Positions 19,562-22,680 of a DNA stretch of 64,000 nucleotides are shown here, piece after piece (position 1 is the first letter of the stretch; each line of letters begins with the position of its first letter). The notes under the pieces were generated by a model, which was not told the DNA's origin, did not search any database, and saw nothing but the letters and a program-made list of their open reading frames with translations. Source of the DNA: a virus (lineage: Duplodnaviria > Heunggongvirae > Uroviricota > Caudoviricetes); the IMG/VR virus record IMGVR_UViG_3300042544_001887. The stretch is one strand, 5' to 3'. The position numbers were made by a program, and so were the translations under genes.

Positions 19562-20462
19562 AAACACTATGAATCAAAAATTACAAGATCATTTAATCGG
19601 GTCACTTGTTGGCCTTGCCGTCGGTGATGCAGTAGGCACTACTGTTGAATTTAAACCGCGTGGCTCATTTCCTAAGATTGTTGACATGATCGGCGGCGGC
19701 CCTTTTAGATTGCCAGTAGGGTATTGGACAGATGATACATCTATGGCATTGTGCCTAGCAGAAAGTCTTATAGCATATCCACTGCTTGATAAAAAAGATT
19801 TGTTAACTCGTTTTTGTAACTGGTATAAGAATGGACATAATTCTTCTACCGGTCGTTGCTTTGACATTGGTAATACAACTGTCTCTGCACTAGAAGAATT
19901 TATTCACAGTGGTCAAACGAATAACAATCCTGAAGACTTTTATGCAGGTAATGGATCTATTATGCGATTGTCTCCTGTGGCAATTGCAAATTATAAAGAC
20001 TTACACAAAGCAATTAAAATTGCACGTGAACAAAGTGAAACAACTCATGAAACTATTAAAGCAACTGCTTCTTGTGAGTTGCTTGCAGAAATTTTAGTTA
20101 GAGCATACACTGCTGAAACTAAACAGCAAGTAATGGATATTGAATGTCCGTTACATTGGCCCGAACCTGTTTGCGATATTGTTGCATCTAGCGTTGTTAA
20201 AAAAACTGAAGCAGAAATTAAGTCTTCGGGTTACGTTATTGACACATTAGAAGCAGCCGTCTGGGCATTTTTAAATACAGACAACTTTGAGGATGCAGTT
20301 TTAATAGCAGTTAATCTTGGACACGATGCTGATACAGTCGGTGCTGTAACAGGACAAATTGCCGGAGCATACTATGGAGAAACCGGAATTCCTAAACATT
20401 GGCTAGAAAAGCTTTATAACCATGAACACATCAGAAACCTTGCAATCAAACTTTCCGAATAA
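19551..20462 (+). CDS. ADP-ribosylglycohydrolase (ARH/DraG family)
   Basis: N-terminal GSLVGLAVGDAVGTTVEF signature, 303 aa. Confidence 0.8.
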   Translation: MYTTNTMNQKLQDHLIGSLVGLAVGDAVGTTVEFKPRGSFPKIVDMIGGGPFRLPVGYWTDDTSMALCLAESLIAYPLLDKKDLLTRFCNWYKNGHNSSTGRCFDIGNTTVSALEEFIHSGQTNNNPEDFYAGNGSIMRLSPVAIANYKDLHKAIKIAREQSETTHETIKATASCELLAEILVRAYTAETKQQVMDIECPLHWPEPVCDIVASSVVKKTEAEIKSSGYVIDTLEAAVWAFLNTDNFEDAVLIAVNLGHDADTVGAVTGQIAGAYYGETGIPKHWLEKLYNHEHIRNLAIKLSE

Positions 20463-20943
20463 AGTAGTAGTTTTCTTAGACCTCGACGGTCCTATCATTG
20501 ATCTTAAAACTTACAAGACCAACCCGATTGTGTCTTATTATAGAACTGGTGGAAATTCAAAGGCTATCGAAAATCTTGTAAAGTTGTGCGACGAGTTTGG
20601 TCTTGAAATCGTCACTAATTCTATGCACAACTATTACCAGTTAGGAGATGATACTCTTCAGGACGATTTAGTATCCTGGGGTATTCCTGTAGATCTTTTT
20701 CACAGTGACTGGAGAACTATTTTTCCTAAAGTTAATTACAAGGAAATAAAAAGCACTGTTCGGGGAATTGGTAGACTTTACGCTATTGAACAATGGATCA
20801 AAGAACATCCTGGGTATAACTGGATTTGTTTTGATGATCGAAAGTTTACAGAAGATCCGAGACTGATACATATTTCTAGAGAAAACGGAATCGACCAAGG
20901 ATATTACGAGCAGGCAAGAAAAATTCTAAAAACACTTGCTTGA
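20422..20943 (+). CDS. HAD-family phosphatase (polynucleotide 3'-phosphatase-like)
   Basis: motif I FLDLDGP, ICFDDRKF; adjacent to kinase and RNA ligase. Confidence 0.55.
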   Translation: MNTSETLQSNFPNKVVVFLDLDGPIIDLKTYKTNPIVSYYRTGGNSKAIENLVKLCDEFGLEIVTNSMHNYYQLGDDTLQDDLVSWGIPVDLFHSDWRTIFPKVNYKEIKSTVRGIGRLYAIEQWIKEHPGYNWICFDDRKFTEDPRLIHISRENGIDQGYYEQARKILKTLA

Positions 20944-20968
20944 CAGCAGTGTCGATTCCTGTTACTTT
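20940..20968 (+). promoter_or_regulatory. possible sigma70 promoter
   Basis: TTGACA-N17-TGtTACTTT. Confidence 0.35.
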
Positions 20969-20989
20969 GTTGCAAACATGGAGATCTAA

Positions 20990-21523
20990 ATGAGCGAACC
21001 CGTCTGCACTGTAATGGTTGGCTTGCCTGCTATGGGCAAGTCCACTCTTGTTAAAGGCATGTGGAAAGATGAAAGCACTTTCATCTACAGCACTGACGAT
21101 CTTCTTGAGGCCGCTGCTAAAGAACTTGGCAGCACTTACAATGAAGTGTTTGAAACGCTAATCAAGTCAGTTACTGAGGCAGCAAACGGATCTCTCGATG
21201 TTGCCGTCAAGAACCGTCAAGACATCATCTGGGATCAAACCAACTTGGGTGCAGGCAAGCGTCGTAAAATTATTAATCGTATGCGTCAGGCAGGTTATCA
21301 AGTTCGTTGTGTTTGTATCGTTCCTCCTGAAGCAGGACACATCAGTAATCTCAAGGACTGGAAGTATCGTTTGGCTAACCGCCCTGGTAAAACTATTCCA
21401 GATGAGGTGTTGACAAACATGTATCGTTCGTTTACACTGCCTACAGTAGAGGAAGGGTTTGATATGATTACCTTCTATAACATGCACGGTGCCCTGTTGG
21501 GTGTTGACTATGGAGAAGAATAA
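20990..21523 (+). CDS. polynucleotide kinase-like P-loop kinase
   Basis: Walker A GLPAMGKST; 177 aa; synteny with Rnl1. Confidence 0.55.
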   Translation: MSEPVCTVMVGLPAMGKSTLVKGMWKDESTFIYSTDDLLEAAAKELGSTYNEVFETLIKSVTEAANGSLDVAVKNRQDIIWDQTNLGAGKRRKIINRMRQAGYQVRCVCIVPPEAGHISNLKDWKYRLANRPGKTIPDEVLTNMYRSFTLPTVEEGFDMITFYNMHGALLGVDYGEE

Positions 21524-22680
21524 TGCACTACCGTTTTCCTGAGATCCGTCACATTAGTGATGTGCTTCCGCACATCGAAGGTCGTGAGGAATTTGTTGTA
21601 GCAGAGCGTGAAGGCTACACTGTGATCAACTACGTGGTTGCAATGGCCGACACCTTTGACATGACTGGAGCAGATGACTTGGGCGGTGCAATCCGTCGTG
21701 AATGTCGTGGCTTGATTTTTGACCGTGATGGTAACATCATGAGCCGTCCGTTTCACAAGTTCTTCAACATCAACGAGCGTGAAGAAACTCAAGCACATCG
21801 GTTGGATCTCAGTGTTTTGTTTGACCATGTGATCATGGAAAAGATGGATGGTTCGATGATCCGTCCTATCTTAGTCGATGGACACTTGCGTCTTGCTACC
21901 AAGATGGGTGTAACTGAAGTGGCCATGCAGGCCGAAACTTGGCTAGCTGCTCAGGACCCTATGTTGAAGAAGTGGATGGCTATCATGATGGCACAGGGTA
22001 TTACTCCGATCTTCGAGTGGGTAAGCCCGTTCAATCAGATTGTGTTGGCGTATGAAACCGCTGATCTTGTGCTATTGGCACTGCGTAACAACATCACTGG
22101 CGAATACCTTGATGTCGGCGATCCAAAAGACGACAAACTGTGGACTGTGGTTCCGCAGTATGGTTCAGTAGAAGGCAACCTTGGTGACTATATTGCTCGT
22201 CAGCGTGGTGCAGAAGGTCGCGAAGGTGACATCATTCGCTTTGCGGATGGGCATATGGTCAAGGTCAAGAACGACTGGTATGTGCGTATTCACAAGACTG
22301 TGGATCGCATCGTGTTCGACCGTAACATTGTTGCTCTTATCCTCAACGAGGAAGTGGACGACGTGTTGCCGATGTTGCCGCAGGTTCAAGCAGATCGTGT
22401 TCGTGTATTCGAGCGTCGATTCGCCGAACGGCTTCACGCTGTGGTTGAAAACTACGAACGCTACTGGAACACTGTAGTAGCATCGGGTCTTGACCGCAAG
22501 CGTTATGCTCAAGAGTGGATGCCTACTATTAAGGGCAACGATCCGTTTGCTACTAACTACGTGTTTGGTCGCTTTGCTGGTCGAGATGGTCGTCAAATGA
22601 TTCTTGATCATATCGAAAAGAGCATCACTACCAACGTTCGTTGGGATGAATGTGCAGCGTGGATGGGGATGGGTCCGTGA
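21523..22680 (+). CDS. rnlA: RNA ligase 1 (T4 RnlA-like)
   Basis: ECRGLIFDRDG...FHKFFNINE and KxDG nucleotidyltransferase motif IMEKMDGS match T4 Rnl1. Confidence 0.85.
   Translation: MHYRFPEIRHISDVLPHIEGREEFVVAEREGYTVINYVVAMADTFDMTGADDLGGAIRRECRGLIFDRDGNIMSRPFHKFFNINEREETQAHRLDLSVLFDHVIMEKMDGSMIRPILVDGHLRLATKMGVTEVAMQAETWLAAQDPMLKKWMAIMMAQGITPIFEWVSPFNQIVLAYETADLVLLALRNNITGEYLDVGDPKDDKLWTVVPQYGSVEGNLGDYIARQRGAEGREGDIIRFADGHMVKVKNDWYVRIHKTVDRIVFDRNIVALILNEEVDDVLPMLPQVQADRVRVFERRFAERLHAVVENYERYWNTVVASGLDRKRYAQEWMPTIKGNDPFATNYVFGRFAGRDGRQMILDHIEKSITTNVRWDECAAWMGMGP

Follow-up and report, generated by a model that had tools for sequence, protein, structure and literature searches.

In phage T4, the anticodon nuclease PrrC is countered by Pnkp (pseT), in which a kinase and a phosphatase are fused, and by the RNA ligase Rnl1 (rnlA). 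The phosphatase of T4 Pnkp has a DxDxT nucleophile and the Mg2+ ligands D165, D167 and D278 (PMC3592404), and its kinase depends on K15, S16, D35, R38, D85 and R126 (PMC2831316). Surveys of jumbo phages (Iyer et al. 2021, PMC7824862 section 3.4.9; 2022, PMC9503650 section 3.7.3) described RNA-repair gene sets in which ATP-grasp RNA ligases occur with polynucleotide kinases and with 'PKN-HAD' and 'Swiss-army-knife' (SAK) HAD phosphatases. They also linked cREC, a predicted 2',3'-cyclic phosphodiesterase, to RNA ligases, and described numerous tRNAs as well as genes for NAD+ salvage. Jumbo-phage Rnl1, cREC, kinases and SAK-type HADs that stand alone have already been reviewed (PMC7824862 section 3.4.9).

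We analyzed a window of 64,000 nucleotides (the whole stretch of DNA) from a virus of the Caudoviricetes (IMG/VR record IMGVR_UViG_3300042544_001887). The initial annotation had described three adjacent genes in it, encoding a HAD phosphatase, a P-loop kinase and an Rnl1, as one split tRNA repair module. All three open reading frames are present on the plus strand (20422-20943, 20990-21523 and 21523-22680). We found that the phosphatase had been misassigned and that the locus is probably two units that have met: a repair operon with a split Pnkp, and a block carrying a different gene cassette, inserted between the phosphatase and kinase genes of that operon. The features of the locus are as follows.

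14923-15366, plus strand: stand-alone HAD_PNKP phosphatase (147 aa; Pfam HAD_PNKP, PF25109, E=4.7e-30)
15367-15663, plus strand: 98-aa open reading frame at the left edge of the inserted block (no Pfam match)
15715-16446, minus strand: Zeta-toxin-like P-loop kinase (243 aa), first gene of the cassette, divergent from the gene for the large protein
16476-19535, plus strand: large protein with KOW repeats and sigma-70 region 1.1 (1019 aa)
19569-20462, plus strand: Tri1-like ADP-ribosyl(arginine) hydrolase (297 aa; Pfam ADP_ribosyl_GH, E=7.2e-73)
20422-20943, plus strand: capless HAD phosphatase of the HAD_SAK_2 family, here SAK-HAD (173 aa), last gene of the cassette
20990-21523, plus strand: P-loop kinase (177 aa) that stands alone and belongs to the polynucleotide-kinase clade; predicted to phosphorylate 5'-OH ends of RNA
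21523-22680, plus strand: T4 Rnl1-family RNA ligase (385 aa), from Pfam, PDB and alignment to T4 residues
23068-23442, plus strand: cREC, cyclic-phosphate-processing receiver domain (Pfam cREC_REC, PF20274, E=2.2e-18, full-length profile)

The genes for HAD_PNKP, the hydrolase and cREC had been overlooked in the initial annotation.

The ligase and the kinase

The product of 21523-22680 is a T4 Rnl1-type RNA ligase with a KxDG motif, as had been proposed, and is predicted from its sequence to seal tRNA. It matched Pfam RNA_lig_T4_1 (E=1.5e-27), and its residues 59-372 matched PDB 2c5u (T4 Rnl1; E=4.9e-30) in an alignment that reaches chain residue 367. The motif, K107-M-D-G, aligned opposite K99-E-D-G of T4. 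All 12 of the T4 Rnl1 catalytic residues that we checked were kept in a pairwise alignment (30% identity to T4). Among these, R62, K79, F81, K127 and E165 correspond to T4 R54, K75, F77, K119 and E159, and E234, G235, K247 and K249 to T4 E227, G228, K240 and K242; all are identical. We take these T4 residues to be catalytic, from the mutational literature. Matches to the Rnl1-specific C-terminal domain (Pfam T4_Rnl1_C; E=1.9e-5, 25.4 bits, cut-off 27) and to NCBIfam TIGR02308 (160.8 bits, equivalog cut-off 242) were below the cut-offs. The start codon of the ligase overlaps the stop codon of the kinase (TAATG, 21521-21525), and the two genes are thus translationally coupled.

The gene directly upstream of the ligase does encode a separate P-loop kinase (AAA_33, E=2.6e-18; Walker A, G11-LPAMGKST-19). 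The kinase matched positions 5-141 of the 295 positions of phrog_505, a T4-like Pnkp profile (E=1.4e-11). A profile of the kinase family matched PSTK (8.7e-11) and the kinase of mammalian PNKP (1.8e-10) in the PDB and, more weakly, Pnkp1 (2.5e-6) and T4 Pnk (1.5e-5). K17/S18, D36 and R127/R131 align with K15/S16, D35 and R122/R126 of T4; K17, S18, D36 and R131 are invariant across the family. The position of T4 Arg38 is occupied by L39, and an Asp is one residue off in the alignment (D82-Q-T-N vs S-D85-T-N in T4). Mammalian PNKP likewise has no counterpart of Arg38 (PMC2831316). The kinase clade also holds PSTK and KTI12-type proteins.

The phosphatase half of Pnkp is encoded upstream

We found that the gene truly corresponding to the C-terminal domain of T4 Pnkp is 14923-15366, with predicted activity as a 3'-phosphatase and 2',3'-cyclic phosphodiesterase. 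Its product matched positions 163-294 of the 295 of phrog_505 ('polynucleotide kinase'; E=1.9e-34), and also Pnkp1 (PDB 4xrp, E=1.4e-10) and residues 162-299 of T4 Pnkp (PDB 1ltq, E=5.6e-8). D6, D8, R17 and R63 align with T4 D165, D167, R176 and R213, and D97 and D121/D122 with T4 D254 and D277/D278. That is, the DxDxT nucleophile and the Mg2+ ligands are present (D6, D8, D122). The kinase matched the N-terminal half of phrog_505 and the product of 14923-15366 the C-terminal half; SAK-HAD matched neither. Kinase and HAD phosphatase are not fused in one polypeptide here, but are two genes, each corresponding to one half of the profile. The initial annotation was right that Pnkp is split into two genes, with the phosphatase before the kinase in this phage group, but took the wrong gene for the phosphatase. 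The proposal that 20422-20943 encodes the Pnkp phosphatase half is not supported by its sequence.

The repair genes are conserved together. In 12 of 23 related IMG/VR viral contigs, genes for HAD_PNKP, the kinase and Rnl1 occur in that order on one strand, in several cases followed by cREC. The gene upstream of the kinase and Rnl1 in the relatives is 74-83% identical to 14923-15366, and in 21 of the 23 the kinase and Rnl1 lie no more than 6 kb apart. A cREC that is 74-80% identical is found 0-3 kb downstream of Rnl1 in at least six contigs (L007-L010, L018 and L019), and directly after Rnl1 in L018 and L019. For cREC, a function as 2',3'-cyclic phosphodiesterase has been predicted (PMC7824862, PMC9503650), and this would be its part in the repair module. 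None of the 23 relatives of the Rnl1 locus has the Zeta-like kinase, the large protein, the hydrolase or SAK-HAD. There was no Rfam match in 14000-26000 or in the interrupted Rnl1 of contig L025, and no cultured phage matched 19500-23500 at the nucleotide level.

The phage was thought to use these genes against host anticodon nucleases. We regard this role as probable; repair of such damage is what is usually inferred from a gene set of this kind (PMC7824862, PMC3592404). ARAGORN found 33 tRNAs, two of them with aberrant anticodon loops, in agreement with the earlier count of about 33. An open reading frame described as PTH2-like (11322-11714) does pass the Pfam PTH2 threshold, but marginally (24.5 bits, cut-off 23) and over its N-terminal 29 residues only.

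A TTGACA (20940-20945) had been described as promoter-like. The hexamer is there, overlapping the stop codon of SAK-HAD, but it has no usable -10 box: the best candidate, 17 nt away, is TACTTT (3 of 6 positions). The site was not listed in a promoter scan. The window has 60 copies of TTGACA (52 +/- 7.5 in shuffled sequences), and 16000-26000 has 33 promoter-like sites (26.5 +/- 5.1). Because of the poor -10 box, its absence from the scan and a count close to that of the shuffles, we rejected this site as a mark of a promoter.

An inserted block with a four-gene cassette

The HAD_PNKP gene is parted from the kinase gene by a block of ~5.6 kb (15367-20989). Nucleotide homology to the backbone relatives stops at 15366-15375 and restarts at 20988-21010. 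Homology to a different set of contigs, those that have the cassette, extends over 15818-20874. The cassette consists of the genes for the Zeta-like kinase (on the minus strand), the large KOW protein, the Tri1-like hydrolase and SAK-HAD, in that order. The same cassette is present in eight other phage lineages that have no adjacent kinase or Rnl1. Neither the backbone relatives nor the cassette contigs have a homologue of the 98-aa open reading frame; it was found only in identical contigs (L027 and L029). No meaningful repeats flank the block, the only repeats being internal to the KOW protein. The GC content of the block (0.335-0.40; window, 0.397) does not distinguish it as foreign. The cassette itself (0.335-0.39) lies near the window mean, and the genes richer in GC are those for repair. 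Seven proteins of the locus had no match to the PADLOC defence models.

SAK-HAD matched Pfam HAD_SAK_2 (PF18143; E=5.4e-9, 37 bits, cut-off 27.5). Its motif is D20-L-D22-G-P, with D20 and D22 invariant in the family. An AF2 model (pLDDT 86.5) has a capless HAD fold of a generic kind, no nearer to Pnkp than to MDP-1 or CTD phosphatases. At the sequence level the phosphatase motifs of T4 Pnkp were not found, and T4 Pnkp was not detected with a profile of the SAK-HAD family. We know of no member of HAD_SAK_2 that has been characterized biochemically. The SAK family was reportedly defined by Burroughs and Aravind in 2016. Pfam and the authors of the family describe HAD_SAK_2 as an RNA-repair phosphatase family, a predicted function (PMC7824862).

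The SAK-HADs of the eight other cassette lineages are 44-64% identical to the one here. In eight of the nine lineages the neighbors of SAK-HAD are the ADP-ribosyl hydrolase, the large KOW protein and the Zeta-like kinase, and neither Rnl1 nor an AAA_33 kinase was found in the fetched flanks (up to 8 kb). The hydrolase and SAK-HAD genes overlap or abut in all eight other lineages; here the overlap is 41 nt. Because the cassette occurs in eight lineages that have no adjacent kinase or Rnl1, the conserved partner of SAK-HAD is the hydrolase and not the ligase. All homologues came from a large protein database, and a protein scan of viral contigs gave no confirmed relatives. The cultured phages RHph_I1_18, vB_EliS-L02 and RcXuper have distant homologues in uninformative contexts; in RHph_I1_18, the homologue is ~108 kb from RnlA/PNK in the record.

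The hydrolase matched NCBIfam Tri1 (NF041672; E=4.6e-106, 354.6 bits, below the equivalog cut-off of 490 bits) and PDB 6dre (E=1e-81). The Zeta-like kinase matched Pfam Zeta_toxin (E=3.8e-15), AAA_33 (E=7.4e-9) and phrog_12810 (E=1.2e-28). Its position and orientation are kept in L030-L035, L041 and L042, and it still adjoins the gene for the large protein in L043. The large protein has an N-terminal domain (approximately aa 76-345) that belongs to an uncharacterized phage family, followed by KOW repeats and a C-terminal sigma-70 region 1.1. It is possible that the N-terminal domain has an ADP-ribosyltransferase (ART) fold, a weak fold call. No ART similarity was found by Pfam scan of 35 family members, by comparison of a family profile to the PDB, or by hhalign against T4 Alt, and a BFVD fold search with this domain returned solely uncharacterized homologues.

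Two of the cassette lineages have a cREC gene ~1 kb upstream of the cassette, and, a few kb downstream, one of these two also has RtcB and two cassette lineages have PTH2. Given these neighbors, the cassette itself may be tied to RNA repair. The cassette appears to be undescribed; KOW, Zeta and region 1.1 are not mentioned in PMC9503650.

Two units and alternative explanations

Under the two-unit explanation, the first unit would be a conserved phage RNA-repair operon that encodes a T4-type Pnkp as two genes, together with Rnl1 and cREC. By homology to T4 Pnkp and Rnl1, the kinase would phosphorylate 5'-OH ends and the ligase would then seal the tRNA. The second unit would be the block, inserted in this lineage only, with the cassette as its core. 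Gene linkage suggests that SAK-HAD most likely works with the translationally coupled hydrolase, perhaps on a phosphorylated product or adduct derived from ADP-ribose, or on some other macromolecular phosphoester. It would not be the phosphatase designated to act with the kinase and ligase. An accessory role for SAK-HAD as an RNA-end phosphatase is possible. We counted against two separate units the RNA-repair definition of HAD_SAK_2 and the position of this gene, whose stop is 46 bp from the kinase start. We also counted against them the cREC, RtcB and PTH2 genes near the cassette, a GC content that is not foreign, and a kinase clade that is not restricted to polynucleotide kinases.

It is unlikely that SAK-HAD, the kinase and Rnl1 form one healing-and-sealing module in which SAK-HAD supplies the 3'-phosphatase, as initially annotated. 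A well-conserved HAD_PNKP is already encoded at 14923-15366, SAK-HAD is missing from all 23 locus relatives, and nucleotide homology indicates that it came with the inserted block. In eight other lineages the gene before it encodes the ADP-ribosyl hydrolase, and neither a kinase nor Rnl1 is close by. We also think it quite improbable that the cassette is an NAD+-dependent system that processes RNA ends and feeds Rnl1, similar to published repair neighborhoods centered on KptA or sirtuin. In such a system, the ART-like head would attach ADP-ribose to the phosphate at an RNA terminus. Clearing the products would fall to the hydrolase and SAK-HAD, and phosphorylation of 5' ends to the Zeta-like kinase. 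However, the hydrolase most resembles Tri1, whose substrate is ADP-ribosylated arginine in protein; the fusions to KOW repeats and sigma-70 region 1.1 suggest that RNA polymerase or the ribosome is the target, and not RNA ends; and the ART fold call is weak.

There is very little chance that the kinase and ligase do not repair tRNA, with the ligase serving as a tail-fibre attachment factor (like T4 gp63) and the kinase as a nucleotide or tRNA-modification kinase (PSTK/KTI12-like). The PHROG family of the ligase is named 'RNA ligase and tail fiber protein attachment catalyst', PSTK is the best PDB profile match of the kinase, the automatic JGI name of the kinase is Kti12, and the counterpart of Arg38 is missing. 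On the other hand, that residue is missing from mammalian PNKP too, every catalytic residue of the ligase that we checked is conserved, and dozens of contigs, as well as Roseobacter phage DSS3P8, show the ligase in linkage with HAD_PNKP, the kinase and cREC. As to what the cassette does, we tentatively suggest an undescribed, mobile module of uncultivated jumbo phages for counter-defence or host takeover, in which an ART would target transcription or translation, the hydrolase would erase the modification, and the kinase and phosphatase would act on phosphorylated NAD+ or ADP-ribose species. If so, the 'RNA-repair' SAK-HAD subfamily would really be a phosphatase of an ADP-ribose pathway.

The repair module adds one more example to an already known class of phage systems that counter defences based on cutting tRNA. 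Its naturally split Pnkp and cREC partner are separate proteins that could help dissect the contribution of each healing step. The correction is the more useful result: adjacency alone led to the wrong phosphatase. Comparative synteny places this SAK-type HAD subfamily alongside an ADP-ribosyl hydrolase, which calls into question the use of 'RNA repair' as a label for the whole Pfam family. The four-gene cassette, conserved and uncharacterized in large uncultivated phages, merits biochemical study.

Comparison with known systems

The repair genes are similar to those that T4 uses against PrrC. The ligases are of the same family (30% identity), and the kinase and HAD_PNKP match the two halves of T4 Pnkp, with key catalytic residues present. 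The genes rnlA and pseT are also neighbors in T4, 1.4 kb apart. In contrast to T4, kinase and phosphatase are separate polypeptides, and the genes run phosphatase, kinase, ligase, whereas T4 has the ligase first and then kinase-phosphatase. The kinase lacks an Arg38 counterpart, has D-x-T-N in place of S-D-T-N, and has better profile scores with mammalian PNKP and PSTK than with T4. There is also the additional cREC, and in this phage 5.6 kb lies between the phosphatase and kinase genes.

The split arrangement is not novel; the cultured phage DSS3P8 and the jumbo-phage review precede it. DSS3P8 has three separate genes, for HAD_PNKP (gp099, annotated 'polynucleotide kinase'), an RNA ligase (gp105) and a P-loop kinase (gp106), with 45%, 44% and 38% identity to the proteins in the window. 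In both phages rIIA and rIIB lie close to these genes. The order in DSS3P8 is different (phosphatase, five other genes, ligase, kinase), and neither cREC nor the cassette was seen in the fetched stretch. In the surveys of Iyer et al., PKN-HAD is usually fused to the kinase and SAK-HAD is treated as an RNA-end phosphatase.

The hydrolase is a close homologue of Tri1, the ADP-ribosylarginine hydrolase that is the immunity protein to Tre1, a type VI ADP-ribosyltransferase toxin of Serratia. As with Tre1-Tri1, the hydrolase gene directly follows a gene whose product may have an ART fold in its N-terminal domain. The locus differs from Tre1-Tri1 in that the upstream protein has no sequence similarity to known ARTs and continues into KOW repeats and sigma-70 region 1.1. 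The setting here is also a phage genome and not a toxin-immunity locus, and genes for a Zeta-like kinase and a HAD phosphatase go along with the pair.

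A stand-alone phosphatase matches Pnkp

The initial annotation had assigned an HAD phosphatase (20422-20943), a P-loop kinase (20990-21523), and an Rnl1 ligase (21523-22680) to a split, re-ordered tRNA repair module. All three plus-strand ORFs are present at exactly those positions. The general theme, a split Pnkp in a tRNA repair kit, held up. The choice of phosphatase did not, since the phosphatase half of a Pnkp profile matches a different gene, at 14923-15366. The features of the region are:

11772-14740, rIIA and rIIB
14923-15366, plus strand, HAD_PNKP phosphatase, 147 aa; Pfam HAD_PNKP 'Polynucleotide kinase PNKP phosphatase domain', E=4.7e-30
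between HAD_PNKP and the Zeta-toxin-like kinase, a 98-aa ORF
15715-16446, minus strand, Zeta-toxin-like kinase, divergent from the gene for the 1019-aa protein
16476-19535, upstream of the hydrolase gene, large 1019-aa protein; KOW repeats and sigma-70 region 1.1 (E=2.1e-20)
19569-20462, plus strand, ADP-ribosyl hydrolase; Pfam E=7.2e-73; closest solved structure Tri1 (6dre, E=1e-81)
20422-20943, plus strand, SAK-HAD (capless HAD phosphatase), 173 aa; Pfam HAD_SAK_2, 37 bits (cut-off, 27.5)
20990-21523, plus strand, P-loop kinase, 177 aa; AAA_33, E=2.6e-18
21523-22680, plus strand, Rnl1-type ligase, 385 aa; Pfam RNA_lig_T4_1, E=1.5e-27; phrog_562, 3e-74
23068-23442, plus strand, cREC (cyclic-phosphate-processing receiver-domain) protein, downstream of Rnl1 beyond two small ORFs; PF20274, E=2.2e-18
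28037-29113, NMN adenylyltransferase-Nudix fusion (NadM-Nudix)
29464-30918, NAMPT-type phosphoribosyltransferase

Of the 295 positions of phrog_505, a T4-like Pnkp profile, 5-141 were matched by the window kinase (E=1.4e-11) and 163-294 by the HAD_PNKP protein (E=1.9e-34). SAK-HAD matched neither half, and a profile of its family did not detect T4 Pnkp. HAD_PNKP also matched the phosphatase domains of Pnkp1 (4xrp, 1.4e-10) and T4 Pnkp (1ltq residues 162-299, 5.6e-8). Its D6, D8, R17, R63, D97, and D121/D122 align with T4 Pnkp D165, D167, R176, R213, D254, and D277/D278, of which D165 is the nucleophile, D167 the general acid, and D278 a Mg2+ ligand (PMC3592404).

Two other genes lie upstream. 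A PTH2-like gene (11322-11714) is separated from HAD_PNKP by rIIA and rIIB in the window; in the related contigs L018 and L019, a PTH2-like gene is ~0.5 kb upstream of HAD_PNKP. A calcineurin-like phosphoesterase (10037-10687) has a weak Pfam match (E=1e-3).

The ligase and the kinase

The ligase is of the Rnl1 type, as originally annotated. In addition to the Pfam and PHROG matches, it matched T4 Rnl1 in the PDB (2c5u, residues 59-372, E=4.9e-30). In a pairwise alignment with T4 RnlA (from NC_000866; 30% identity), all 12 T4 residues considered (R54, K75, F77, K99, D101, G102, K119, E159, E227, G228, K240, and K242) are kept.

Some relatives have irregular Rnl1 genes. In L025 (6001-7951; also in L024) the gene is divided into one ORF for residues 1-196 and another for a C-terminal portion of 192 aa. 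In L025 these are separated by a 221-aa ORF on the minus strand (6584-7249) whose N-terminus is GIY-YIG-like and which resembles an inserted free-standing homing endonuclease; Rfam detected no intron at this site. In the L019 homologue (6001-7015), the stretch corresponding to residues 75-113, immediately before the KxDG lysine, is missing through a change of frame near 6218-6222; the gene could be a pseudogene, or the sequence misassembled. In the window, an 80-aa Cys-rich ORF (CSCGC...C...H...C; 22677-22919) begins with a GTG that shares bases with the stop codon of Rnl1 (GTGA). This ORF is restricted to this phage lineage, and its sole family match is a weak one to DUF3027 (E=0.047).

Among 24 members of the kinase family, G11, P13, G16, K17, S18, T19, S34, D36, D82, T84, R91, and R131 are invariant and R127 nearly so. 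K17/S18 correspond to T4 Pnkp K15/S16, D36 to the general base D35, and R127/R131 to R122/R126. No residue is equivalent to T4 R38, and the Walker-B-like Asp is displaced by one position. Essential T4 kinase residues are K15, S16, D35, R38, D85, and R126, and mammalian PNKP likewise lacks an R38 counterpart (PMC2831316). In the PDB, the family profile matched PSTK (8.7e-11), the kinase domain of mammalian PNKP (1.8e-10), Pnkp1 (2.5e-6), T4 Pnk (1.5e-5), and the Pnkp kinase of Clostridium thermocellum (3.5e-5). These alignments and matches place the kinase in the PNK/PSTK clade. Its predicted role as an RNA 5'-kinase rests on genomic context.

A cassette interrupts the repair locus

A scan of viral contigs with Rnl1 as query gave 23 loci (53-82% identity; contigs up to 342 kb), against which we compared all window proteins by tblastn. 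In 21 of the 23, the kinase lay no more than 6 kb from Rnl1. The order HAD_PNKP, kinase, Rnl1 on one strand was found in 12 (L007-L012, L016-L020, L022, L023), with a phosphatase-kinase gap of 0-1.1 kb in 11 and 1.8 kb in L009. A cREC gene (74-80% identical) was downstream of Rnl1 in L007-L010, L018, and L019; the predicted activity of this family is the opening of 2',3'-cyclic phosphates, and its linkage to RNA ligases has been reported (PMC7824862, PMC9503650). None of the 23 loci contained the Zeta kinase, large protein, hydrolase, or SAK-HAD by tblastn. Nucleotide homology to these relatives ends at 15366-15375 and restarts at 20988-21010.

We traced 24 SAK-HAD homologues (40-100% identity) to contigs; the identical protein was in contigs identical to the window. 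In L030/L031, L032, L033, L034, L035, L041, and L042 (SAK-HADs 46-64% identical), the unit was a minus-strand Zeta-like kinase, a 921-1195-aa KOW protein, the hydrolase, and the HAD, always last. The hydrolase and HAD genes overlap by 41 nt in the window and by 4-23 nt in these contigs, except in L030/L031, where the HAD was called only in truncated form. L043 has a permuted unit (hydrolase, HAD, minus-strand Zeta kinase, large protein) in which gene pairs remain together. Cassette contigs are 65-70% identical in nucleotide sequence to 15818-20874, and the AAA_33 kinase and Rnl1 were absent from the flanks covered (up to 8 kb). Cassette synteny elsewhere and the homology breakpoints thus indicate that the block 15367-20989 is an insertion into the phosphatase-kinase junction of a repair operon, and that the conserved partner of SAK-HAD is the ADP-ribosyl hydrolase.

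At least nine phage lineages share the four-gene cassette (15715-20943), which appears to be undescribed; our literature search found no description of it, and the full text of an NAD+/ADP-ribose survey does not mention KOW, Zeta, or region 1.1 (PMC9503650). According to that survey, bacterial systems centred on ADP-ribosyl hydrolases frequently include a coupled phosphatase that may process released ADP-ribose (PMC9503650). L033 and L034 have cREC ~1 kb upstream of the cassette, and on its downstream side L034 has RtcB and both L033 and L035 have PTH2; the cassette may be more loosely connected with RNA and translation functions. The L034 RtcB (11644-14333) is in two ORFs, of 73 and 400 aa, on either side of a DUF7487 gene, and may be a further RNA-ligase gene that has been interrupted. 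In the window, NAD+ salvage genes (28037-30918) lie 5-8 kb downstream of the cassette.

The N-terminal ~345 residues of the large protein define an extensive uncharacterised family, with 1701 representatives at E <=1e-3, in which R118-G119, R135, R161, N163, and E304 are invariant. Many members are free-standing proteins of ~330 aa. One member is fused to a Zeta-toxin domain, and a BFVD match, a 778-aa protein of Agrobacterium phage Atu_ph07, is annotated 'Zeta toxin domain-containing'. None of 35 members had a Pfam ART (ADP-ribosyltransferase) match, the family profile had no match in the PDB, and hhalign against T4 Alt gave a probability of 0.3%. We regard the chances that this domain is an ART as roughly balanced.

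Promoter-like sites and tRNAs

The TTGACA described as promoter-like is real (20940-20945), but 17 nt on there is only TACTTT, with no acceptable -10 box, and a promoter scan did not call the site. The hexamer is not enriched in the window (60 copies vs 52 +/- 7.5 in shuffles), although in the first 36 kb (1-36000) nearly all copies are on the plus (coding) strand. The best sigma-70-like match of the region (19532-19559; TTGACA, 16 nt, TATACT; 11/12) ends 10 nt before the hydrolase ATG (19569); it may give a nearly leaderless transcript or be a chance match.

ARAGORN gave 33 tRNAs, in agreement with the earlier count of about 33. Two of these, tRNA-like genes, have abnormal anticodon loops of 2 bases ('gc', 37737-37812) and 4 bases ('tatg', 42850-42923).

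Predicted functions and known systems

Our observations are of domain identities, conserved catalytic residues, gene linkage, and insertion boundaries. In the predicted pathway, cREC and/or HAD_PNKP would convert 2',3'-cyclic phosphate ends to 3'-OH, the kinase would phosphorylate the 5'-OH, and Rnl1 would seal the break, steps that would counter anticodon nucleases, as in T4. More tentatively, the cassette might act on the machinery of transcription or translation through ADP-ribose-related chemistry, with the hydrolase as eraser and SAK-HAD and the Zeta-like kinase acting on a phosphorylated intermediate.

In T4 the gene order is rnlA, alc, pseT.3, pseT.2, pseT.1, pseT. In Roseobacter phage DSS3P8, which is cultured, HAD_PNKP and the kinase are also stand-alone proteins: gp099 (HAD_PNKP, annotated 'polynucleotide kinase'), gp105 (Rnl1), and gp106 (kinase) are 45%, 44%, and 38% identical to their window counterparts. 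In Caulobacter phage Cr30, Synechococcus phage B23, and Rhizobium phage RHph_I1_18, a kinase is close downstream of Rnl1. A split Pnkp beside Rnl1 was therefore already in public genomes, and the novelty first attributed to the arrangement was overstated. The repair module belongs to an already known class; what is more original about the locus is the inserted cassette.
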